64,000 bases of DNA from Dehalococcoidia bacterium (GCA_965261825.1 CBDHED010000002.1:18103-82102), one strand, 5' to 3'; counted from the first letter of the stretch, positions 673 to 64,000 are shown. Notes: a model not told the origin generated them from the sequence alone. Numbers and translations are program-made.

Positions 673-2895
673 CTACTCCGTTGGCTTGATACGGTCCGGC
701 TTGCGCAGCGCACATTCCGCCAGCGCAAAATAGGACCCCTCGTTCAGCGGAAAGAGCAATGCTGCCGCCAGCCGGCTGCCCTGTTCGGACCCGTCGCGTA
801 TGCCAGGGTCGTTGGACAGAGGCCGCAGTCCCGATGCCTTCAGACGCCGGCAGGCTACCTGATAAGCGTCCCTCACCCTCCCTGTCCGCAGCATTGCCAG
901 CATTGACGGCTCCATTGAGATGTCCACGTCCGCGTTATACTCTTGGCATACGAACTTGCTGGGCAACAACATGAGTTTCATCGCCGCATACGCAGCGGGT
1001 AAATCGAGCGGTGCCGGTTGTGGATAGTCGCTCGGCTCAGAATGATGCCGGTAGCGCACGGCCGACAGCGGCAGGACCAGATCGGCAACCCGTCGGTCTT
1101 CGAGTTCACTGTTCAAGAACGACACGATGTCACTCAGTTGGGCTGAGTACGTCGCCTTAAGGGGCGGGTGGTGATTCTCCAAACCTCGCATCCGCCCTTC
1201 GAGGCAGCGGCGCTCTAGGACGGCAAGCATGTTTGAGAGGGGGTCTCCCGCAGTCCAAACAAACGATGTGCTGTCCTTGTCCCACTCTGTCCGCTTATGC
1301 GAGTGTGTCTTAGCAGGCTCCAGATTTTCCCGAATTGGCCCGACCTTGTACTCTCTCTGCCCCGTTTCGGGAAGGATAGACGCCGTAGCGCGAGCCAGCC
1401 TAAACTCGGCGGACTCGTCATCGGCATGGTGTAGCCATTCCCACGAGAGGTTGTTGAGTGGCTGCACACCCCTGCCATTGTCGCCGTCCTTACTGAGACT
1501 AGACCTCGACAGCCACCGCTCAGCGCGCCCTACTGCAATCAGCACGTCCTGAAGGTCGCGTGGGCCCCCACGCTGGCAGAACTCGATAATTGCGCCCTCG
1601 ACTTGCCTCAAGACTGTGCCGATACCGGTCGGCACCCTGCTGCCGGACGCAGTGCGTCGGAGGCTCTGCATCCACGCGTCTAGGTCAAAAAGAACGTTCG
1701 CGCGTTCCGTAGTACCTTGGTCGCTTTGAACGTAAAACCGCCCCAGCGGAGTGGCTAGATCCGATTGCCCGTTCCGTTCTATAAACCCAAACCGCTGGAA
1801 CTGAGATATCCCTCGCTCAATTCCCAACCCGACCACCGCTCTTGCGAAATCTGTACCACTTGTACCTTGCCCACGACCCATCTGGACACGCCCCTCGGAC
1901 ATAAAATGAACTAACTCTGCCAAGTTGATGGGGCTGTCCCAAAGTGGTGCCCAGAACTCAGCTTTGAACTTAGTTCCGTATTCGGAATCCGCAGAGGTCC
2001 CATACCCGGCGGCGGAGCCGTCAACCGTAAATGGAAACACCGCTTTGGACGATGCCTGTGAAGACAATCTCCGTGCAGCTGCGCCAGCGAACAACAAGGC
2101 CCCTTCCATCATCAAGACGAAATCCCAAGGGTTGATTAAAGAGTCTGCTTTAAAGCCTACTGTAGCATTGGCACCGCCTACACCCCCAGGATGGAACTGG
2201 CCAACCGCGCTCCCAGCAAGCGGCGCATCGCCTTGACTGAAAACCGAGATGTTGACCCACCCCTCGCGGCGTTCATCAGGATCAAATCGTCTTGTAGGCT
2301 TCTTCCCAATTTCGACGCCGGTTAGAGCCAGATTCAGGTTCTTCATGAAGTTGACGCTAAACTCCATGTTGCCGTCGTTAGCGCCAGTTCCAAGCAAAGG
2401 CATGAATCTTCGATCTCCGGTTGTCAGCACATACACTGCGTCAAGCCATGCCAGAGACAAGTCAGGCAGAAGATTACGGCACCCCGCCAGAATCGTTAGC
2501 TTCTCGCTTTCAGACGGCTTGTTGACAATGCCCGCGCCGGTGAGTATCCGTTGGCACAATTCTATAGTCTGCCGGTACTCCTTCAGCCGCATGGAACCTT
2601 CGCCCTGGATCGCGTCAACCGCTTCTTTCGCCGCCGTGCTGCCCTTCGCATAGAACCCGCTTCCACCGTTCCACGGCGACACTATGGGCGTTGGCTTGTA
2701 CTCTTCCATGAAGAACTTCACCAGCGCGTCCTGGTCCAACACCGACCACAACATGAACGTATCGTTCTTCCACCAAGCGCGGGCGTCCTTGTCCTTCTGT
2801 TCTGCCACCAGGCGGAAGATGCCCAAGGCCTTCAGGTAGGCCATCAGCGGCTCTGGCGCGCAACCCGGCAGTTCCCGATGGTGGTCCTGGCTCAC
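673..2895 (-). CDS. csx17: Cas8u2 / Csx17 large subunit (type I-G)
   Basis: ORF 673..2985. The N-terminal ELPGCAPEPLMAYLKALGIFRLVAEQKD matches my memory of the Csx17 N-terminus. I prefer GTG at 2895 (GGGAGG about 7 nt upstream, GTGA overlap with the cas3 stop) over the ATG at 2985, which would overlap cas3 by 94 nt. Confidence 0.8.
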   Translation of the reverse strand: MSQDHHRELPGCAPEPLMAYLKALGIFRLVAEQKDKDARAWWKNDTFMLWSVLDQDALVKFFMEEYKPTPIVSPWNGGSGFYAKGSTAAKEAVDAIQGEGSMRLKEYRQTIELCQRILTGAGIVNKPSESEKLTILAGCRNLLPDLSLAWLDAVYVLTTGDRRFMPLLGTGANDGNMEFSVNFMKNLNLALTGVEIGKKPTRRFDPDERREGWVNISVFSQGDAPLAGSAVGQFHPGGVGGANATVGFKADSLINPWDFVLMMEGALLFAGAAARRLSSQASSKAVFPFTVDGSAAGYGTSADSEYGTKFKAEFWAPLWDSPINLAELVHFMSEGRVQMGRGQGTSGTDFARAVVGLGIERGISQFQRFGFIERNGQSDLATPLGRFYVQSDQGTTERANVLFDLDAWMQSLRRTASGSRVPTGIGTVLRQVEGAIIEFCQRGGPRDLQDVLIAVGRAERWLSRSSLSKDGDNGRGVQPLNNLSWEWLHHADDESAEFRLARATASILPETGQREYKVGPIRENLEPAKTHSHKRTEWDKDSTSFVWTAGDPLSNMLAVLERRCLEGRMRGLENHHPPLKATYSAQLSDIVSFLNSELEDRRVADLVLPLSAVRYRHHSEPSDYPQPAPLDLPAAYAAMKLMLLPSKFVCQEYNADVDISMEPSMLAMLRTGRVRDAYQVACRRLKASGLRPLSNDPGIRDGSEQGSRLAAALLFPLNEGSYFALAECALRKPDRIKPTE

Positions 2896-5315
2896 TTTGC
2901 CGCCTCCCGTTCTTTCGCGCTCGCCCGAAAATCCGCGGCCCGCACTATCGCCTCTAAGTACGCCAGCCTGAACGGGCCCAGCCATTCCAACAGCCCCAAG
3001 CTACGCTCAAGCCAGGAGCGTCGCCCGTTCTCACTCATCCCCATCTGAGCGATCGACATATCGAGCGTCGTTTCTGGGACGCGCAACTCCTTGCCCAAGT
3101 CCACCTCAGGCAGCGTCTCGGGCTCCGATATCGGATACCCCAGCAGCTTGGCAGCATCCGGGTTGCTGTCTCTATTGCTACTTCGCGCCCCCGGTAGCGA
3201 CCTTATGCCAAGCCTGACCAGGCCATGATGCGCTGCCGCTAGGTACGCCGTCAGGTCGCGTAACCTACCGTCGGGTACGTTGGCATGTTCGAGTAGCGCC
3301 AGCGCACTCCCGATCTCGTGTCGGAAGTGCCGGCGGTCCCCGCCGAACTTCCCGTAGCCAGGGCTTTTTGCCATCAGGTCATCTTCGCCAGGCGGGGTGG
3401 AGTCCTCCGGCAAGGATTTCCGCAGCATCTCCTGGAACGCAGAGTGGGCTTTGCCCGTATCGTGATAGAGAGCAGCCATCGCCACAGCTTCACGAATGCC
3501 CGGCTCAGTAAGCCATCTCGACAGCGCATCAAGTATCATACGCGCTTCGGCTTCGACATGGCGGGAGTGGTCGCTCAGAGTTACCCACTTCCTCTGGCAG
3601 GTGTTGGTAGTGTCGGATCCCCAGCCGTCCTCGGGCTGCGGGTCTTCGTCCAATAGAACAGGCTCCACCGGCTCTCTGCTGGAAGGTGCCCACCCGGTCT
3701 CCGGCGAGTACCCGCCCTGATTCGCGTCCAGCATCAACGTCATGCCGGGATGAATATCACGGAGTTGAATCCCCTGCCACTGGCTATCCAGGAAGTCCCA
3801 CCTCCACGCCCTGCGCTCGCTAGCCAAGTAGTCCTTAATGCCTTTGGGGCCGCCCTTTGAGCCGCCGATCGGCACATTCACCAACTCGTCATGGCGCGGC
3901 CGCGGCTCGGTTTCATTCGGGCCGCTCTCCGGAACGTCACGCCAGAACACCGAAACGCCCGTCTCCTCGGCCCCCCGGACATACTGTGACACGTCCAAGT
4001 AGCTTCCTGATAGGTCGGGCGTAGTATCGAACAGGCCCACCACGTCGCGCCTGCGGATGACGGCTAGGTGGTCGGCGTCCTTCATCTTATCGCCCAACTC
4101 TTCGAGAGCGGCAGGCCCAACGGACTTGCCTTCCAGGGACTCCATGATTCCGCGGGCGTGGTCAACGTCCTCCGCGTCATACGGGGCGGTATTCTTGCCC
4201 ACGTCGAACCATATGACGTCGCCACGCTCGCACTTGCCGGTGCGGTTGCACCGCCCGAAACGCTGGACCATCGACGCCCATGGCGCAAGCTCTGTTATCA
4301 GCGTCCGTGCCGAGATGTCCACCCCTGCCTCTATCGCCTGCGTCGCCACGACAATCCTGCCTTGACCATCGAGGGGTGCGGAGACGCCTTTCTGCTTGTC
4401 CTTGCGGTCCTTCTCTCGGAAGCGCGAGTGCACCAGCACCTTTTCGGTGTCCAGCGAGACCTTCTTCAAGGCTTCATAAACACCCTGCGCCCGCTCCACG
4501 GTATTCACTATCACCAATGTCAGCGTCCCGTGCTCGTGTTTTTCCGCAACGATACCGGCTATCTCTTTGGGCTTCGTGACGTCCACCGAGGCCTTGGCCG
4601 CGACCTTCTTGGCGTTGTGTCGCTCAGCGAGGCGGGCGTCCGCCAGATCGTCGTCGCCAAGTTTCACGATCTGATTCTCCGAGGGGGCAGGATGGTCGAT
4701 AGTCTCCAGCCAGTTGGGACGGACGGTCGCCGACATCCACATGCTTTGAGCGGGGCCGAAGGTCTCGAACTTGCCTCGCAGCCCGTCCATCTGCGTTGAC
4801 GTGGGCAGGCCGTTCGCCATGAGTTGCACCTCGTCCATCACCCAGAGGCAGTCGTTGTTCAGCAGGCCATACTCGACCGGCCACATGTTGTAGCCCATGC
4901 CGTAGCCGCGGTTCAGGGCGCGGGACAGCAGCATGTCCTGCGTACCGACGATGATGAAGGGCTTTTCAGGGTGTAGATACCACTGAGCGCGAGGCTCCCC
5001 TCCCATGAGTGTGACGAGGCCAACGTCGTCCGCTCTGCCCAGCTTTGTGAGCCAATCTCCAACCCGGGTCACAGTCTGCTCCACCAGCGTCCGCATTGGA
5101 AGGCAGTACGCCAGCCTTCGCGGAGTGGTGTCACGCATGGTAGGTTCCGGATGCTCGAAGCGCCTGTACATCCACCCCAGCACGGCCGCCTCCGTCTTCC
5201 CGGCACCTGTCGGAACCCGCACCAGACTGGGCAACTCCGGTCTCTCAGCAAGCTCAGCCTGGTACGGATATGGAGAAAACCCGGTTGCCTTATTGAAGAA
5301 ATCAGCGTAGGTCAT
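2892..5315 (-). CDS. cas3: Cas3 helicase with C-terminal HD nuclease domain
   Basis: Walker A PTGAGKTE and DEAH-like VMDEVQ are followed by a C-terminal HD signature (LYHDTGK, FRHEIGS, AAHHG). Helicase-then-HD order is typical of subtype I-U/I-G. Confidence 0.9.
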   Translation of the reverse strand: MTYADFFNKATGFSPYPYQAELAERPELPSLVRVPTGAGKTEAAVLGWMYRRFEHPEPTMRDTTPRRLAYCLPMRTLVEQTVTRVGDWLTKLGRADDVGLVTLMGGEPRAQWYLHPEKPFIIVGTQDMLLSRALNRGYGMGYNMWPVEYGLLNNDCLWVMDEVQLMANGLPTSTQMDGLRGKFETFGPAQSMWMSATVRPNWLETIDHPAPSENQIVKLGDDDLADARLAERHNAKKVAAKASVDVTKPKEIAGIVAEKHEHGTLTLVIVNTVERAQGVYEALKKVSLDTEKVLVHSRFREKDRKDKQKGVSAPLDGQGRIVVATQAIEAGVDISARTLITELAPWASMVQRFGRCNRTGKCERGDVIWFDVGKNTAPYDAEDVDHARGIMESLEGKSVGPAALEELGDKMKDADHLAVIRRRDVVGLFDTTPDLSGSYLDVSQYVRGAEETGVSVFWRDVPESGPNETEPRPRHDELVNVPIGGSKGGPKGIKDYLASERRAWRWDFLDSQWQGIQLRDIHPGMTLMLDANQGGYSPETGWAPSSREPVEPVLLDEDPQPEDGWGSDTTNTCQRKWVTLSDHSRHVEAEARMILDALSRWLTEPGIREAVAMAALYHDTGKAHSAFQEMLRKSLPEDSTPPGEDDLMAKSPGYGKFGGDRRHFRHEIGSALALLEHANVPDGRLRDLTAYLAAAHHGLVRLGIRSLPGARSSNRDSNPDAAKLLGYPISEPETLPEVDLGKELRVPETTLDMSIAQMGMSENGRRSWLERSLGLLEWLGPFRLAYLEAIVRAADFRASAKEREAAK

Positions 5316-5486: not shown

Positions 5487-8400
5487 GTTTCAATGGGGCC
5501 ATGACCTTTCGGTCATGGATACACACTGCCATTATAGCACATTCGCTCGTGGTACCTTGCTTCAATGGGGCCATGACCTTTCGGTCATGGATACACTGAA
5601 GGCCGGGGAGCAGCGCATGACGATTACGGTGCTTCAATGGGGCCATGACCTTTCGGTCATGGATACAAGGAGATATGAAAATCACGGTTGTAAACCGTTG
5701 GCGTAGCTTCAACGGCCGTGTTCCTTCTCGGCTTCAACTGGGGCGGCATGTTCCTTCTCGCTTCAATGGGGCCATGACCTTTCGGTCATGGATATGAAAA
5801 TCACGGTTGTAAACAGTTGGCGTAGCTTCAATGGGGCCATGACCTTTCGGTCATGGATACTTCAGGACGCCAAGATGACGTGCTTCAATGGGGCCATGAC
5901 CTTTCGGTCATGGATACGCCCGGGATCTCTGTGGGCTTCAATGGGGCCATGACCTTTCGGTCATGGATACTATGCAGTGCCGAGCCGGGACCCTGGCGCT
6001 TCAATGGGGCCATGACCTTTCGGTCATGGATACATGGCGAGTGTCCGACTCACGACACGGGCCTCGTCCGGCTTCAATGGGGCCATGACCTTTCGGTCAT
6101 GGATACTCGTCTATGCCAGTGCTTCAATGGGGCCATGACCTTTCGGTCATGGATACCCGAACAAAAGCTGCTTCAATGGGGCCATGACCTTTCGGTCATG
6201 GATACCGTGCCCGCTTCAATGGGGCCAGTGTCCGACCGGACGCACACGGTGCGTCGCCCGGCTTCAATGGGGCCATGACCTTTCGGTCATGGATACAAGG
6301 ATTTACTGTCGGCCCGGAAGTCTGCTTCAATGGGGCCATGACCTTTCGGTCATGGATACCTACGAGGCGCGACTCAACACGGGGGGCTCGTCCTGCTTCA
6401 ATGGGGCCATGACCTTTCGGTCATGGATACTGCCCATTCTGCTTCAATGGGGCCATGACCTTTCGGTCATGGATACCATCAGTTAGGACGCCACGCCGCT
6501 TCAATGGGGCCATGACCTTTCGGTCATGGATACTCTGTAACTGAGCCACCCAACACGAAGAGCGTTACGGGCTTCAATGGGGCCATGACCTTTCGGTCAT
6601 CAACGCGGTCAAAGGAGGACGCGGCTGCGAGAACGGCTTCAATGGGGCCATGACCTTTCGGTCATGGATACAGAGGGCTTCTCCGCCCGCCGACCGAGCT
6701 TCAATGGGGCCATGACCTTTCGGTCATGGATACGGCAACTCAGAGCTTGCCCTGCCCCTGCTTCAATGGGGCCATGACCTTTCGGTCATGGATACACCGG
6801 AAGGGCTACGCGTGTTTGCTGGATGGGGCCATGACCCCATGGATACTAGGAAGCGTACGATCCTACCCCGCTTCAATGGGGCCATGACCTTTCGGTCATG
6901 GATACGACGGTCCCAGCAGGTCTCCGCCTCTACTCCGCTTCAATGGGGCCATGACCTTTCGGTCATGGATACTTCACAAGGCGGATCGGAAGCGCAGACG
7001 CCGGCTTCAATGGGGCCATGACCTTTCGGTCATGGATACCGGGGGAGCCCATACGCGCCGGTGGGCAAGGGACTCCCGGCTTCAATGGGGCCATGACCTT
7101 TCGGTCATGGATACGAAGCGTGGGCCAACCCATCATGGGGCCGCTTTCGGTCATGGCCAGAAAGGAGCAGAGCGTATGCTGAACTAGGCTTCAATGGGGC
7201 CATGACCTTTCGGTCATGGATACGCTCGAACGTTCGCGGCGCGTCAAGCTTCAATCCATGACCTTTCGGTCGATACGCCGACCTCCGGGCCGACGCCGCC
7301 AGGGGGATGCTTCAATGGGGCCATGACCTTTCGGTCATGGATACGGCTGGCGTCCACTAGGGCCTTCCGCACAGTTCCGGCTTCAATGGGGCCATGACCT
7401 TTCGGTCATGGATACGGGCAAGATGGCCACACGCGGAAGGGTGACGTGAAGGTGCTTCAATGGGGCCATGACCTTTCGGTCATGGATACCAGTATGGGGT
7501 GGTCGACCATGGCCAGGCGCTCGTGCTTCAATGGGGCCATGACCTTTCGGTCATGGATACCGGAACAGGGTCAAGGCCCTGGCGACGTCGCCGGCGCTTC
7601 AATGGGGCCATGACCTTTCGGTCATGGATACTGGAGGTGCCGCCCGCCGCCTTGCGGGTCGCTTCAATGGGGCCATGACCTTTCGGTCATGGATACGCTG
7701 GGAATGATGAGTCCGGTATGGGCGCGTTTTCCCATGGACGGGAGAATTACATACAATCCGCCGGCTGGCCGCTGCTTCAATGGGGCCATGACCTTTCGGT
7801 CATGGATACCTGGGAGAGCTGCTAGCGGTGCTTCGCCGACAACGGGGACCTAGAGGGACGTGCTTCAATGGGGCCATGACCTTTCGGTCATGGATACCTG
7901 GGGAATACTACGATCTTCAAGGGGTTGGTACGAGCGTGGGTGCTTCAATGGGGCCATGACCTTTCGGTCATGGATACCAGGCTGGGGGCCGACGATCCCT
8001 CCGGCCAGCGATGTGTGCTTCAATGGGGCCATGACCTTTCGGTCATGGATACCGGAACAGGGTCAAGGCCCTGGCGACGGACCTGGCAGCTTCCCACGCT
8101 TCAATGGGGCCATGACCTTTCGGTCATGGATACTGGACAACCCCACCACGCCTTGCAGGGTGCCGAGGACGCCCCAGGGCTTCAATGGGGCCATGACCTT
8201 TCGGTCATGGATACCAGCTGAGCGGTGCGCCGACAACCTCTGCAACAATCACGGGCTTCAATGGGGCCATGACCTTTCGGTCATGGATACTGGGGAGTTA
8301 TCTTGCGGCGCCCAACGACCTTTCGCAAGGGGTTGGTTCCTAGGGGAGCGCTTCAATGGGGCCATGACCTTTCGGTCATGGATACCAGGAACTCGACATG

Positions 8401-59773: not shown

Positions 59774-61219
59774 GTGGTTCGGACATCTTTCAAACCTGCT
59801 AGAAGGGGAGGCGACAGAGTGGTTACAGCAGAGCCGATCTCACTAACACTTGCGGAAGCAGCCTGCAAGATCAAGTCTCGCGAAATCTCACCCGTCGAGT
59901 TAACACAAGAGAGCTTAGACCGTATCGATGAGTTGCAGCCCAAGCTTAACGCGTTCATAACGATCTGCCCCGATCAGGCCCTTTCCGCTGCGCGAAAGGC
60001 CGAGAGGGATATCGCCGGAGGTAAATACCGTGGCCCTCTGCATGGTATTCCTTACGCGGTCAAGGACATCTATGCCAGCAAGGGAATCCGCTCCACAAGC
60101 GGGTCGAGAGTCTTTGCTGATCACTTCCCTGATCACGATAGCACGGCAGTTAGGAAGCTGAACTCCGCGGGAGCTGTGATGGTGGGAAAGAACAACACCA
60201 ACGAATTTGCCAGCGGCGGTGACGACAGCAGCTTTTACGGCCCCGTGCAGAATCCCTGGAAGCTGGGCTATACGCCGGGAGGTTCCTCTAGCGGTTCGGC
60301 AGCCTCGGTTGCTGCTGGGATGATTTTCGCATCCATGGGATCTTGTACCGGTGGCTCCGTTCGTGTACCTGGCTCTAACTGCAGCTTAGTGGGGCTGAAG
60401 CCCAGCTATGGACTGGTCAGCAGATATGGCATATTCCCATTGAGTTGGTCGTTGGATCATCCTGGTCTCCTCACCAGAACCGTTGAAGACTGTGCACTTC
60501 TACTCCAGACGGTAGCGGGTTACGACTCAAAGGACTCATCCTCCACCAGGGTGTCAATCCCGGATTATGCTTCCGCTCTCACCAACGATATCCGCGGGAT
60601 CAGAGTGGGGGTTCCAAGGGAACTCCGTGAAGGCACATCAGCAGAGGTGGACCTCTTAGTAGAGAAGGCATTATCAGTGCTGAGGGAACTGGGCGCTTCA
60701 GTTGAAGAGGTTTCGGTGCCTATAACCGACAACTACGCCACGACTGCAGGCAACGTGATCACGTGGAGTGAGGCCGGCCAGATTCATACACCGTATCTCC
60801 AACACCTGCATGAATACTCCATTGGTGTTAGAGAAAAGGTTCAGGTGGGCCTTGTCATCCCCTCTAACGACTACCACAAGGCCCAAAAGATGCGGCGTAA
60901 GGTTCAAGAGGAGCTGACTCAGATGCTGAATCGAGTAGATGTACTGGTCGGCCCAATCCAGAGGACTCCACCTGGAACCCTCCAGCTCAGCGTGGCGACC
61001 GGTGCTGCTACAGGGATGGCTACTCAACGGAGCTTCACCCGGCCGTTTAACTTGACAGGCATGCCCGCGGTCAGCGTGCCTTGCGGCTTTTCTCCAGAGG
61101 GCCTGCCGGTAGGATTGCAGATAGCTGGCAGACTTTTTGACGATTCCACTGTGCTCCGCGTGGCCCACGCTTATGAGCAGGCGACCCCGTGGCACGATAT
61201 GCATCCATCGATATCCTGA
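59774..61219 (+). CDS. Amidase (amidase-signature family, GatA-like)
   Basis: GGSSSGSAASVAAG is the amidase signature, with upstream LHGIPYAVKD. The exact start is uncertain. Confidence 0.85.
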   Translation: MVRTSFKPARRGGDRVVTAEPISLTLAEAACKIKSREISPVELTQESLDRIDELQPKLNAFITICPDQALSAARKAERDIAGGKYRGPLHGIPYAVKDIYASKGIRSTSGSRVFADHFPDHDSTAVRKLNSAGAVMVGKNNTNEFASGGDDSSFYGPVQNPWKLGYTPGGSSSGSAASVAAGMIFASMGSCTGGSVRVPGSNCSLVGLKPSYGLVSRYGIFPLSWSLDHPGLLTRTVEDCALLLQTVAGYDSKDSSSTRVSIPDYASALTNDIRGIRVGVPRELREGTSAEVDLLVEKALSVLRELGASVEEVSVPITDNYATTAGNVITWSEAGQIHTPYLQHLHEYSIGVREKVQVGLVIPSNDYHKAQKMRRKVQEELTQMLNRVDVLVGPIQRTPPGTLQLSVATGAATGMATQRSFTRPFNLTGMPAVSVPCGFSPEGLPVGLQIAGRLFDDSTVLRVAHAYEQATPWHDMHPSIS

Positions 61220-61229
61220 GGAGGCGCAC

Positions 61230-61427
61230 ATGCCCAAAATGTCGAAAGAAACCGTTAGTGCCCTGATAACGCTTGGCGGCGCCGATGCCACACCTCAAGA
61301 GATTGAGGCAACTACAAAGCTTTATAACACTCTCGCCGAGCAACTAGAGGAAGTCCCGTCCGACTCACTGGAAGAGGTCGAACCTCACTTCATCCAGCCC
61401 ACAAGGAGAGGACGCAGCAGCTCGTAG
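61230..61427 (+). CDS. Small hypothetical protein downstream of the amidase
   Basis: ATG at 61230 follows GAGGAGG. The 65-aa acidic product is unrecognised. Confidence 0.35.
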   Translation: MPKMSKETVSALITLGGADATPQEIEATTKLYNTLAEQLEEVPSDSLEEVEPHFIQPTRRGRSSS

Positions 61428-61584
61428 CGTAATAATCCCAGGTGGCGGCATCTAGGCTCAGAGAGCTTTACAAGAAGCATGGTCAGGATACATAAGATAA
61501 GGTGATTATCCCTTAACGTCACGTAATGAGTGACTGCTATGGCTATCGCCATACTCTCAGTGTATCAGCTAGGAGGCATGGAAA

Positions 61585-62019
61585 TTAAAATGGTAGGTCT
61601 CCGGTGCCAAGTGGCAAGGCATCGTTTTCAGGTACTCTCTTCGCCAAGTCCCACATGCCACGACCAACATTCACAAAGCGATCATCTATGCTTAGGTATG
61701 ACCCCACACTATTCACCGGATTCTTGCCACCAACATGGATGCCCTGCTGCTGGATGCGACCATGAATTTCCGAGCGGTGAAGTGGTCCCCCCTCGCCATG
61801 TAGGATGTCATATATAGCAGTGCCAATCCTTTCAGCGAAGGAATCTTTGTTGAGAGTATCTTGGGATTGACCATTACGCTCAATGACCCTTATCACAACG
61901 TGTAGGCTTTCAACCTCTTTGTCGATCTCGCGTTTCTTTGTTTCTAAGTCTTTGACCAAGGCGCGTAGGCCACGCAATATGGATTCATTGCCCATTGTCG
62001 TTCTCCATTGTGTTGCCAA
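61585..62019 (-). CDS. HARE-HTH (winged-helix) domain protein with an N-terminal coiled coil
   Basis: AIYDILHGEGGPLHRSEIHGRI...GKNPVNSVGSYLSIDDRFVNVGRGMWDL matches the HARE-HTH pattern (..P...eI...i......tP..t....l....rF.rvgrG.w.L). Confidence 0.45.
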   Translation of the reverse strand: MATQWRTTMGNESILRGLRALVKDLETKKREIDKEVESLHVVIRVIERNGQSQDTLNKDSFAERIGTAIYDILHGEGGPLHRSEIHGRIQQQGIHVGGKNPVNSVGSYLSIDDRFVNVGRGMWDLAKRVPENDALPLGTGDLPF

Positions 62020-62089
62020 AAGCCACTGTACTGTTTCCTCACCGTATTTGTAGACGCTAGTGTCCCAGTGTTCATACTGTGAAATCAGA

Positions 62090-62172
62090 TGGGGATGGTG
62101 GGATTCGAACCCACATGCCGCTGGCGGCGCTAGTTTTCAAGACTAGTGTGTCTACCGTTCCACCACATCCCC
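62090..62172 (-). tRNA. Class II tRNA, anticodon UGA (Ser by anticodon) with tRNA-Leu-like body
   Basis: The reverse complement is GGGGATGTGGTGGAACGGTAGACACACTAGTCTTGAAAACTAGCGCCGCCAGCGGCATGTGGGTTCGAATCCCACCATCCCCA. It folds into a cloverleaf with a 7-bp acceptor stem, a 3-bp D stem, anticodon stem CTAGT/ACTAG, and loop CTTGAAA. The extra arm is 15 nt, the T arm is GTGGG-TTCGAAT-CCCAC, and the discriminator is A. No CCA is encoded. Confidence 0.8.
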
Positions 62173-62175
62173 AAT

Positions 62176-62267
62176 GTTGAGGGGCGCGTCACACGCTAGC
62201 CCAGTCAAACGGTTACAACGTTTGGTTGGATTTAGGCTACTGCCCAGTCAAGGCCGCGCCCCTCAAC
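62176..62267. repeat. 13-bp perfect inverted repeat (GTTGAGGGGCGCG ... CGCGCCCCTCAAC) between the transposase and the tRNA
   Basis: The arms are at 62176-62188 and 62255-62267, and the 66-nt spacer contains GCCCAGTCAA twice. It lies immediately 5' of the tRNA on the - strand. Confidence 0.8.
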
Positions 62268-62344
62268 CGCATTATAAATGCGTGTATTTGGATAAGCAAG
62301 ATGGCAAACGGCAAAGAACAGCGTGGTTTAACTAAAGAGGCGTT

Positions 62345-63232
62345 TCAGAAGTTACTTCGTAAGGCCGCGCAACCTATACGGAAGCCACCCGGCCCAGAAG
62401 TTGAACGAACATCGGAGTCTCTGTCGCTCCGGTGATTGAACCTATAGACGTAGGAGTCCAAGTAGCCCTGTAGATGCTTTGGACTCACGGCATGGTGAAC
62501 GCCGTCGATGCCCCGCTTGACGTTGCTCCACATCCCTTCCACGTTGTTAGTGTGAGCCCTACCCACTACGTATTCCTTCGCGCTGTGCTGGACGGTTTCA
62601 TGGGCATATCCCAGGCTGGTCAATCGGTTGTAGCTAAGCATCTCATCAGTGTAGACCGTCTGGCCTTGTGGGATGTGCGCTTGAATCATGGGTAGAAGGG
62701 TGCGAGCCTTCACATCTGGCACAACCTTGACGACAGCCGACCCTCCGCGTTCCACCATACCGGCAACGATAGTCTTGCCTTCTGCCCCACGCCCGCGCTT
62801 CCCTGGTCGCTTCCCGCCCACGTAGGTTTCATCGACCTCAATCTCCCCGAACAGGACAATATCGTCCTGCGCCATGATGGATCGGATTTGCTTGAACATG
62901 CGCCATGCGGTCTTGTAAGTGACTCCAACCTCACGCTCAAGCTGCTTGGCGGATATGCCCGTTCTGGTGGATGCCATGAGGAACATGGCATGGAACCAAG
63001 ACCGGAGGGAAGTGGAAGACTTGTGGAAGATAGTGTCGGCTGTGGGGGAGACGTGAGAAGCACAGAATTCACAGCTATAGACCTTCCGGCCTGTGATTCG
63101 AAAGTGCTTGGTGATACGCTGACACTGAGAGCAGGTTATCCCTTCAGGCCATCGGGCGTTCTTCAGGAACTCAAGGCAAGAGTCTTCATCGGGGAACTGG
63201 GCATTGAACTGTTTGATTGTGTACTTGTCCAT
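62345..63232 (-). CDS. IS1595-family transposase
   Basis: The N-terminal zinc ribbon is CSQCQ...CEFC. The DDE region has ...VEVDETYVGG...VYTDEMLSYN...HTNNVEGMWSNVKR.., the typical IS1595 pattern. Confidence 0.85.
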   Translation of the reverse strand: MDKYTIKQFNAQFPDEDSCLEFLKNARWPEGITCSQCQRITKHFRITGRKVYSCEFCASHVSPTADTIFHKSSTSLRSWFHAMFLMASTRTGISAKQLEREVGVTYKTAWRMFKQIRSIMAQDDIVLFGEIEVDETYVGGKRPGKRGRGAEGKTIVAGMVERGGSAVVKVVPDVKARTLLPMIQAHIPQGQTVYTDEMLSYNRLTSLGYAHETVQHSAKEYVVGRAHTNNVEGMWSNVKRGIDGVHHAVSPKHLQGYLDSYVYRFNHRSDRDSDVRSTSGPGGFRIGCAALRSNF

Positions 63233-63298
63233 GCCCCAATACTACCAGATAAAGTACGTGCTGTCAAGGGATAATCACCTAAGATAAAAGCTGAGATC

Positions 63299-63808
63299 AT
63301 GACCCCGGCTTCGTTTTCACCGTTCGGGGAGGTCATCGACGCGTCGGACATCCCTGATGAGATTTCTCCGGTTGATTTTCAAGGAGGCGGATTGCGGTTC
63401 AACGCAACTCTTTTGCCCTATCTCGGCCTGGAGTTTAGCCAGATGGAGCAACACTTCCACGTTACTCAGGCTTTCTTGCCGCTCAGCGGGCCGCCAGCGG
63501 TCGTTGCAGTTGCCGCTCCCACAGACCAAAACGACCCTGATGCGATTCCAGGACCCGAACAATGCCACGCTTTTCTTATAGACGGGACCATGGGTTATAT
63601 TCTGAAGAAGGGGACATGGCACTCTGACCGGTTGCCACTCTATCCGCCAAGCACCAAAATGGTAATCCTCACCGATAACGAGACAAACTTAGACCTCAGC
63701 AGGTATGGCTCTATACGGACTCCCGAGAGCGAACGTGGAGGGTGGAAGATCAACCGCATAGTCGATTACCGGACAAAGCTTGGGGTTACCTTCGAGATAG
63801 TTCTTTAG
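63299..63808 (+). CDS. Ureidoglycolate lyase-like cupin protein (tentative)
   Basis: SFSPFGEVID...HFHVTQAFLPLSG...KGTWH resembles the ureidoglycolate lyase/hydrolase family. Confidence 0.4.
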   Translation: MTPASFSPFGEVIDASDIPDEISPVDFQGGGLRFNATLLPYLGLEFSQMEQHFHVTQAFLPLSGPPAVVAVAAPTDQNDPDAIPGPEQCHAFLIDGTMGYILKKGTWHSDRLPLYPPSTKMVILTDNETNLDLSRYGSIRTPESERGGWKINRIVDYRTKLGVTFEIVL

Positions 63809-64000
63809 CGGCTCCCACACTTGTGACGGCGTAGCCTTGTGGCCTAAGCGGGCCAGCAGCTATAAAGTCTGCAATGCTAATCTAGACGTGGATTGTGGCC
63901 TTCGTGCCTATCCTAGGCTCCGACAATTTCCTCCATTACCCGAAGCAGGTTCTCCCCAAGCACCTTTCTTACTGTGTCCTCCGATTGGCCTCGGCGTAGC

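Follow-up and report, generated by a model that had tools for sequence, protein, structure and literature searches.

Within the IS1595 family of insertion sequences (IS), the subgroups that carry passenger genes are reportedly those of the ISNwi1, ISPna2 and ISNha5 type, as set out by Siguier, Gagnevin and Chandler in 2009. Insertion sequences with passenger genes are termed transporter IS (tIS) and are stated to occur in the IS1595 and IS66 families only (bioRxiv 10.1101/2021.05.26.445724). The element described here occupies positions 61501–63279 of a 64-kb stretch of DNA from a Dehalococcoidia bacterium; this whole stretch is referred to as the window, its positions are used throughout, and related loci are designated by L-numbers with positions of their own. 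The segment 61501–63279, which holds the window element, the window tRNA and the window protein, is with high confidence one genuine transposition unit and an IS1595-family tIS, a degree of confidence that covers the structural account. It shares with the tIS of this family a single transposase with Zn-ribbon and DDE_Tnp_IS1595 domains, terminal repeats beginning with GG, an 8-bp target duplication and passenger DNA that lies between the transposase gene and the distal inverted repeat as part of one moving unit. It differs from them in its passenger, which is composed of a tRNA gene, a structured leader and a gene encoding a winged-helix protein. Literature searches returned no paper in which a tRNA is described as the passenger of an IS1595 member or of any transporter IS. 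The initial annotation of this locus, which was made from the sequence alone, had stated that no described IS1595 member with a tRNA passenger was known to it; this holds in the literature searched, but passenger-bearing IS1595 members as such are the named tIS category.

Horizontally mobile tRNA genes and tRNA arrays are known from phages, plasmids and integrative conjugative elements (PMC7478629, PMC5468388), and the codons they serve are often rare ones in the host. The known carriers measure tens of kb and have many regular tRNAs, whereas the present carrier is a 1.8-kb IS with one to two apparently mismatched tRNAs that are always paired with a particular small protein. Irregular tRNAs were described by Mukai et al. 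2017 (Nucleic Acids Res 45:2776, PMC5389517) from soil bacteria as allo-tRNAs and as 'polycistrons of irregular tRNAs', including a G-1 tRNA(GGU). The anticodons of these tRNAs mismatch their identity, and their possible roles are those of suppressors, of the missense or nonsense kind, or of regulatory RNAs (PMC5389517).

The sequence GGTGATTATCCCTT is located at 61501–61514 and its exact reverse complement at 63266–63279. The inverted repeat reaches approximately 25 nt overall, with a perfect outer 14 bp and 26-nt arms that are 88% complementary. The inverted repeat at the cargo end (IRR; 61501–61525, minus strand), whose outer 14 nt match the opposite end perfectly, is 96% identical to the IRR of L088 and to that of L081. 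The inverted repeat at the transposase end (IRL; 63255–63279, minus strand) was assigned by its pairing with the IRR and carries the GGTRAYTATCCCTTGACA end that is also found in relatives, located approximately 47–80 nt upstream of the transposase in most of 80 related loci. The octamer TAAGATAA abuts the element on both sides as a target-site duplication without strand, with a left copy at 61493–61500 and an identical right copy at 63280–63287, and the unit between the two copies is 1779 bp in length. In a shuffling control (100 shuffles, up to two mismatches to the 14-mer), a mean of 0.27 matches was obtained and none of the 100 shuffles reached the observed three; a chance origin of the terminal repeats is negligible. 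The sole further match of this kind in the window is GGTGAGTATCCGTT at 2539–2552, which has two mismatches, lies within a long open reading frame (ORF) region without a partner and is most likely due to chance. A scan of the window for the end sequence identified no IR-like site between the transposase and the tRNA.

Direct reading and a repeat search agree with the initial annotation on the coordinates of the 14-bp perfect inverted repeats and on the exact 8-bp direct repeat outside both ends, and its proposal of a single 1779-bp transposition unit is upheld, since L088 features the same structure at another site with a duplication of its own. The L088 element is 1770 bp in length, has 81.7% nucleotide identity to the window element, and is bounded by IRL, IRR and the perfect duplication TATTGGAA; homology between the two elements ends within 1 nt of both element ends. 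Its cargo consists of leader, tRNA(UGA) and protein, as in the window. L081/L082 and L083 hold further copies with 84–87% nucleotide identity in the window layout, and the search for copies with the same cargo that had been proposed as a check is answered by L088 together with these loci, which show the same order of parts. The copies end at the same distal inverted repeat and not between transposase and tRNA, a possibility that had been raised for this element. An assembly chimera is not credible, judging by these copies, because L088, L081/L082 and L083 carry the same arrangement and L088 ends at the same distal inverted repeat.

The combination of tRNA and small protein also recurs on more distant backbones. 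L090 (2,262 bp, duplication TAACACAA) and L084 (3,366 bp, duplication AAAAAATA), with a transposase that is 55% identical, represent one backbone and cassette at two sites with different duplications. Their cargo is composed of a long hairpin, one or two tRNAs and a HARE-like protein, to which L084 adds a methylase-HNH gene. L028 (duplication ATAAATAA) and L038 (duplication ATTATATA), both from the set of 50 bounded relatives obtained by a genome scan, each encode two tRNAs (Rfam 40.6–59.8 bits) followed by a coiled-coil protein that aligns with the window protein. In L028 the HARE-HTH match is weak (E = 0.049) and in L038 there is none, and these two proteins were recognised by architecture, by alignment and, for L028 alone, by the weak Pfam match. 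Five duplication-bounded elements with one or more tRNAs followed by a coiled-coil/HARE-HTH gene were identified in this way (L088, L090, L084, L028 and L038).

L088 and further cassette loci were reached by tracing homologues of the window HARE-HTH protein to their contigs. L092 contains the cassette without a transposase and exhibits homology to the window element only at element positions ~980–1720. L091, likewise without a transposase, encodes the leader, two tRNA-like genes and the protein, and in L085–L087 the cassette has two tRNAs and the protein with no transposase of its own. When metagenomes were scanned with the HARE profile, unspecific patterns dominated and the one locus obtained, L089, was weak and has no tRNA; a scan of viral contigs gave no relative. 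Taken across these loci, the cassette is shown as a conserved and exchangeable module and not as a one-off capture. At L085, the region at 1690–3605 that adjoins the cassette resembles a defence island, with an oppositely oriented IS1595 transposase remnant, a KilA-N/BstA_C gene of a known abortive-infection family and a Phd/YefM antitoxin gene.

The cargo cassette is approximately 0.75–0.8 kb in length and comprises the 92-nt leader, the class II tRNA and the gene for the coiled-coil and HARE-HTH protein, all on the strand of the transposase gene. With a backbone of approximately 920–980 bp, this bears out the estimate in the initial annotation of about 750 bp of passenger DNA beyond an IS of about 1 kb. 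That annotation had also placed on the minus strand, in order, the transposase, an inverted repeat with a 13-bp stem (62267 to 62176), a full-length tRNA (62172 to 62090) and a HARE-HTH protein of 144 amino acids (62019 to 61585). The inverted repeat was confirmed by an inverted-repeat search and the tRNA by ARAGORN and Rfam. The co-orientation of transposase, tRNA and HARE-HTH genes also stands, but the start of the last is probably the ATG at 61995, giving 136 amino acids.

The cargo tRNA (62090–62172, minus strand) is of class II, with a long variable arm, the anticodon UGA, A73 and no encoded CCA, and scores 63.5 bits with the Rfam tRNA model against a gathering score of 29. All of U8, A14, G18G19, U33, T54-psi55-C56 and A58 are kept, the anticodon loop is a regular 7-nt loop with A37, and RNAalifold recovers the cloverleaf. 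In four copies, 23 of 23 cloverleaf pairs are intact, with one compensatory pair (5:68, A-U to G-C), and the substitutions sit in loops. The anticodon is not conserved among the close copies: the window and L088 have UGA, L083 has UGC, and L092 combines UGA with C33. Two of the four thus have a change in the anticodon loop (U33C and A36C). The corresponding slot of L081 and L091 is occupied by a different, tRNA-like sequence not called by ARAGORN, in which the 7-bp acceptor stem is perfect and a T-arm is present.

Identity was judged by E. coli-type rules (A73/G73, G3:U70 and variable-arm geometry) taken from the literature, which may not hold for these hosts. By these rules the window tRNA is Leu-like, with A73, the D-arm GGAACGGUAGAC of the GGAAYGGUAGAC type and a 1-4-4-4-2 variable arm. 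The same features match E. coli tRNA-Leu, whose sequence was verified, and the tRNA-Leu of a Dehalococcoidia host (L019). It is unlike E. coli tRNA-Ser, the serine reference used (sequence verified; G73), in that the Ser-type discriminator, D-arm and variable-arm geometry are not found. Anticodon and body disagree in 12 of 12 cassette tRNAs that could be judged (L038a left out) when the E. coli-type rules, possibly not those of the hosts, are applied. By the same rules, Leu-like bodies carry the anticodons UGA, UGC and UUA, and L028a combines the alanine identity set of G3:U70 and A73 with the arginine anticodon UCU. The reverse is seen in the class II tRNAs of L028, L038, L090 and L091, where anticodons UAA, UAA, CAA and CCA go with G73, a D-arm of Ser type and a variable stem of 7 bp. 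The tRNAs of L084 and L090a have the anticodon UGC but C3:G70 and no G3:U70, and their anticodon arms are irregular. In L085a, a tRNA with the anticodon GGU, the acceptor helix spans 9 bp and a G-1 may be present; the 41.5 bits of this tRNA with the Rfam tRNA-Sec model are below the gathering score. Encoded CCA is present in three host tRNAs seen in the loci and is mostly absent from the cassette tRNAs.

The cassette anticodons favour A-ending codons. In the window genes (11,229 codons, 0.72 G+C at third codon positions), UCA, UUA and GCA each rank last by use within their codon family, UCA making up 8% of serine codons, UAA is the rarest stop codon and AGA is among the rarer arginine codons. 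The genes of the window element use UCA once each. A review by Giegé et al. from 1998 is said to list leucyl-, seryl- and alanyl-tRNA synthetases as enzymes that do not use the anticodon as an identity element, so a wrong amino acid would be inserted if the cassette tRNAs are charged.

Two further observations were made on these tRNAs. The class II tRNAs at L028 3343–3434, L038 5109–5201, L090 3818–3911 and L091 3817–3911 have a 7-bp variable stem and a 7-nt loop with a conserved GGUGCU(C/A/G)(G/A)UACCACC. The unusually long variable arm shared by these four looks like an additional anticodon-like arm and could be a recognition element. The anticodon UUA, which reads the stop codon UAA as an ochre suppressor does, occurs in two unrelated tRNAs, one of class I (L038 5021–5092) and one of class II with a Leu-like body (L085 3809–3893, L085b).

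The structured leader (62176–62267, minus strand) lies directly 5' of the tRNA and is an inverted repeat with an outer stem of 13–14 bp. Its other features are an inner hairpin of 6 bp, whose 7-nt loop (UUGNNNC) varies, and a pair of TTGACYGGGC direct repeats. Its folding energy is -42.4 kcal/mol (z-score -3.7), and RNAalifold on six copies finds compensatory changes in 7 of 34 leader pairs, located in the outer stem and the inner 6-bp hairpin. A covariance model of the leader, R1, scores approximately 102–111 bits in sense and 19–22 bits in antisense orientation in the six cassette copies used to build it. Both the G-U pairs and the sense excess of approximately 90 bits favour a leader that would act on the tRNA strand. 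An R1 search of the window and 84 loci gave no copies beyond the six source copies, and the hairpins located upstream in L084, L090, L085, L028 and L038 resemble the leader in architecture only. An Rfam search over 61000–64000 matched the tRNA alone; the leader is not a described RNA family. In the inner hairpin (window 62214–62232, and L081, L083, L088, L091 and L092), the central loop triplet varies (GUA, GGA, GAC, GCA, GAA) and the stem co-varies. The UUGNNNC loop is an anticodon-loop-like signature within a leader that is not a tRNA.

A putative cassette promoter, TTGCTT-17 nt-TATAAT, was read by eye at 62271–62299 on the minus strand, with its -10 box ending 3 nt before the leader stem. 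The -10 box is present as TATAAT, TACAAT or TAAAAT in L081, L083, L088, L092 and L091. Between the window and L088, identity is 95% in the leader, 91% in the tRNA, 91% in the promoter, 81% in the transposase gene, 83% in the HARE gene and 56–68% in untranslated spacers, and the ratio of nonsynonymous to synonymous substitution rates of the protein gene between copies is 0.19–0.41. Comparison of the copies shows the pattern of purifying selection on the leader, the tRNA stems and the protein.

The cargo gene (61585–61995, minus strand) encodes the 136-amino-acid protein from an ATG at 61995 with GGAG 7 nt upstream, and the alternative TTG start at 62019 would give 144 amino acids. The 136-amino-acid form was found in public data as P0001, which is 100% identical. 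Pfam HARE-HTH (PF05066) is matched with 28.1–28.2 bits against a cut-off of 25.9. The AlphaFold2 model (mean predicted local distance difference test score 75.4) has a long, coiled-coil-like N-terminal helix of approximately 40 residues (residues 3–42) and a winged helix of three helices and a beta-hairpin (residues 51–117). Foldseek gave generic winged-helix matches only, all with E > 0.01, and the weak matches from Foldseek and from sequences in the Protein Data Bank (PDB) include the RNA polymerase delta N-terminal domain, Rok, the Rpa2 winged-helix domain and Z-alpha. The best sequence match among solved structures is chain 8x6g_E of RpoE, the delta subunit of RNA polymerase (E = 0.012), and the same chain is found by Foldseek with 26% identity. 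Identity with RpoE was nonetheless rejected, as the protein scores 18.7 bits with NCBIfam RNAP_delt_lowGC (TIGR04567), for which the cut-off is 42; it also has the 40-residue N-terminal helix and not an acidic C-terminal tail. In contrast to HARE-HTH domains linked to restriction enzymes, it is not fused to a nuclease. NCBIfam provided no functional name for the window protein and the PADLOC defence models no match to it, with weak coiled-coil matches only for its relatives. The protein family comprises 1677 clusters at 50% identity (E <= 1e-3).

The transposase gene (62345–63232, minus strand) encodes an IS1595-family DDE transposase of 295 amino acids, identified with Pfam, NCBIfam and an alignment with L081 and L083. 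It scores 152.5 bits with DDE_Tnp_IS1595 (PF12762), 46.6 bits with Zn_ribbon_IS1595 (PF12760) and 224.7 bits with the NCBIfam IS1595 family transposase model (NF033547; cut-off 75). Its best plasmid-borne relatives in PLSDB are at most 46% identical and are named merely 'IS1595 family transposase'. A 1-nt insertion near 62420 (codon ~271) swaps the conserved C-terminal ETPMFVQLLGRVASV for an unrelated tail of 24 amino acids, with the loss of approximately 15 last conserved residues; another reading frame gives back ETPMFVQLLGRVASV followed by a stop. A promoter for the transposase was identified by promoter scan within the IRL (63239–63267, minus strand), as TTGACA-17 nt-TAGTAT with TG before the -10 box and 10 of 12 consensus positions. 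A small ORF of 44 amino acids (MANGKEQRGLTKEAFQKLLRKAAQPIRK...; 62301–62435, plus strand) is convergent with the transposase gene, whose 3' end it overlaps, and has no match in Pfam or NCBIfam. Its motif LTKxxFxxLLxKAAQP (extended ...I...TSES) recurs in most relatives (tblastn, L001–L080) with position and strand unchanged, irrespective of cargo. This small ORF is assigned to the IS backbone and not to the cargo because it appears conserved across the clade whatever the cargo. The backbone of approximately 920–980 bp accordingly comprises the IRL with the transposase promoter, the Zn-ribbon/DDE transposase and the small convergent ORF. In relatives whose cargo shares its strand, the small ORF comes after the cargo, and it could represent a backbone gene not recognised so far or a transposition regulator.

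The gene that flanks the element at 63299–63808 on the plus strand is ureidoglycolate-lyase-like (Pfam Ureidogly_lyase), and the insertion parts it from its upstream sequence. The initial annotation had given a distance of 11 nt to the ATG at 63299, which is correct if the duplicated octamer is counted with the insertion; measured from the element itself, the distance is 19 nt. The intact ends and duplication of the window element indicate a fairly recent insertion.

The 80 transposase-related loci were obtained from a scan of one genome per species and are mostly from metagenome-assembled genomes of Dehalococcoidia and other Chloroflexota, with some from Acidobacteriota. Fifty of them are bounded by IRL, IRR and an 8-bp duplication (47 perfect and three with one mismatch), and the duplicated octamers are mostly AT-rich. 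The bounded relatives are 1,701–4,141 bp in length and each has at least 0.74 kb of cargo; none of the 50 is a minimal 1-kb IS. Passenger ORFs in the clade match DNA methylases, HNH, PIN, trypsin-like peptidases, DUF1828, Mrr, HSDR_N, DUF3800 and others, and no homologue of the window HARE protein was returned when it was compared by BLASTP with the cargo ORFs of these 50 elements. The transposases of L088 and L001 are 92% identical, and the cargo of L001 is a DUF1828 gene. The two elements are 89% identical in nucleotides over positions 1–919, after which homology is found only in the last 26 nt, a pattern from which cargo is judged to be exchanged between the backbone end (approximately position 920) and the IRR. 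Elements with tRNA cargo occupy three separate clades of the transposase tree.

Two side observations concern how cargo may enter such elements. L001 has its cargo-end inverted repeat in tandem at 6307–6359 (TACGTGACATGAGGGGACAATCACC, twice), which may be a trace of cargo exchange or end regeneration. In L017 (3767–3863, tRNA-Sec) and L019 (3831–3915, tRNA-Leu), the IS is inserted 15–90 nt downstream of a host tRNA that lies outside the element, and insertion beside tRNA genes could be a route of first tRNA capture. A tRNA as insertion target was rejected for the window, where the tRNA, unlike those of L017 and L019, lies inside the duplication.

The cassette's own promoter (TTGCTT-17-TATAAT) would yield a leader-tRNA-mRNA precursor from which RNase P and RNase Z would free the tRNA. 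The mechanism preferred for the cassette is put forward tentatively, at less than an even chance. The tRNA would be charged by its body and not by its anticodon, and the Leu-bodied window tRNA would decode UCA, the host's rarest serine codon, as low-level missense. A dimer of the winged-helix protein would regulate the cassette. On the scale of the family, it is possible, if doubtful, that IS1595 tIS spread 'mis-wired' tRNAs with Leu-, Ser-, Ala- and His-type bodies, mostly for rare A-ending codons and in two cases for UAA, together with a dedicated winged-helix regulator. The initial annotation had suggested that decoding capacity is moved by this element; the tRNA is truly carried inside the element, but the suggestion is probably too simple given the drifting anticodon and the Leu-like body.

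Several points weigh against this account of a mobile, decoding cassette. Some comparable irregular tRNAs were charged yet not used in E. coli translation (PMC5389517). The promoter scan omits the cassette promoter, whose -35 box matches three of six positions, and the E. coli origin of the identity rules bears on every assignment of a tRNA body. With its frameshifted transposase tail, the window copy may be non-autonomous. The transposases of L081 and L083 have a common 1-nt deletion in the catalytic domain (alignment column 529) yet differing flanks, which suggests that defective copies were mobilised in trans because the deletion is common and the flanks are not. Programmed frameshifting in L081/L083 was rejected, as the single-base loss sits inside the catalytic domain. 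L081 has no matching target duplication, and the presence of the cassette without a transposase in L091 and L092 makes the link to the IS frequent and not obligatory. Within the 64-kb window there is no second copy, and no empty site (...ACATAAGATAAAAGCTGAG...) was found. Exact look-ups in a contig index with the window transposase, both versions of the HARE ORF and the flanking ureidoglycolate-lyase-like protein returned no record.

A tRNA-shaped RNA that does not decode is nearly as likely as the preferred decoder mechanism. The tRNA would then be selected for its shape, either as an RNase P/Z site that separates and stabilises leader and mRNA or as the target of some tRNA-binding factor (possibly the winged-helix protein), for which it would be a decoy or a ligand; this too is possible but doubtful. 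It would account for stems that are held by compensatory change beside an anticodon loop mutated in two of four close copies, for the slot in L081/L091 that keeps the acceptor stem and T-arm, a minimal RNase P/Z substrate, and for the irregular anticodon arms in L084 and L090a. It is harder to reconcile with the window tRNA, which retains all universal tertiary nucleotides and a regular loop with A37 that are needless for a processing signal, and with the preference for A-ending codons, rare in the window genes, which looks decoding-related.

In an improbable alternative, the cassette would serve in conflict, like toxin-antitoxin or abortive-infection modules; the mismatched tRNA would be toxic and the winged-helix protein would repress it until phage infection or stress. 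The cargo of the clade is otherwise of conflict type (DNA methylases, HNH, PIN, Mrr, HSDR_N and DUF3800), and the L085 cassette is located beside a BstA-like KilA-N gene and a Phd antitoxin gene. Ochre-reading UUA tRNAs in L038 and L085 and the alanine set with UCU in L028a would also suit a toxic role, and Mukai et al. found allo-tRNAs near toxin-antitoxin systems and two engineered variants lethal to E. coli (PMC5389517). PADLOC, however, gave no convincing match, the scan of viral contigs gave no relative, and repression by the protein is pure inference.

It is equally unlikely that the window tRNA is an ordinary tRNA-Ser(UGA) that aids decoding of rare UCA codons, as is thought for the tRNAs of phages and conjugative elements and as the initial annotation had read it. 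The tRNA is indeed a well-formed class II tRNA with UGA, an anticodon also found in L088 and L092, and UCA is only 8% of serine codons in the window genes. Against this stand A73 in place of G73 and the D-arm and variable arm that match tRNA-Leu, together with the lack of an encoded CCA, which three host tRNAs have. The anticodon is UGC in L083 and U33 is lost in L092, and the genes of the IS itself use UCA just once each. Because the cassette is conserved, the anticodon drifts and the body is Leu-like, an ordinary spare tRNA-Ser is unlikely as a reading, and 'Ser' is an anticodon-based label only.

An accident or artefact, that is a minimal IS beside a resident tRNA-HARE locus with a stray inverted repeat or a chimeric contig, would fit a single copy in the window and an empty site that was not recovered, but is scarcely conceivable given the exact 8-bp duplication around the whole 1779 bp, the same 1.77-kb structure in L088 with a different duplication and homology ending at the inverted repeats, five duplication-bounded elements with tRNA cargo and no internal IR-like site between transposase and tRNA.

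Among the closest counterparts of the cassette tRNAs are the allo-tRNAs of Mukai et al. Both sets have diverse anticodons, including nonsense-reading ones, that do not fit identity elements for Ser, Ala or His, for the cassette tRNAs as judged by the E. coli-type rules; ties to transposable elements and toxin-antitoxin loci are suspected for the allo-tRNAs of soil bacteria. L085a, with its GGU anticodon, 9-bp acceptor helix and possible G-1, resembles their 'tRNA1'. The window tRNA differs in having a 7/5 acceptor/T arrangement and not the 8/4 or 9/3 arrangement of a 12-bp branch, and only L085a has the 9-bp acceptor helix. The host here belongs to Dehalococcoidia and there to Acidobacteria, and no passage on an IS1595 tIS as carrier, on a linked coiled-coil/HARE-HTH gene or on a structured leader was found in the text of Mukai et al. 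From this comparison, the cassettes look like the phenomenon of Mukai et al. in Chloroflexota, with a carrier (IS1595 tIS) and a partner (coiled-coil/HARE-HTH gene and leader) now defined.

An insertion sequence is the smallest autonomous mobile unit, and as a tRNA carrier it is far smaller than phages, plasmids and conjugative elements. The tRNA appears here as a member of a recurrent, selected module that is swapped among IS backbones and not as a hitch-hiker. The cassette offers a genomic home for the irregular, suppressor-like tRNAs of soil metagenomes, whose carrier and partner genes were unclear, and for annotation it means that a label based on the anticodon only, such as 'tRNA-Ser', can mislead within mobile elements. 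If the tRNAs are charged and used, the cassette would amount to a naturally occurring device for missense or nonsense recoding, one that spreads horizontally on a single 1.8-kb IS, and the outcome would be either regulated mistranslation or a tRNA-based toxin. The question raised for these bacteria is whether they horizontally move deliberate mistranslation or tRNA-based toxicity, and under what control.

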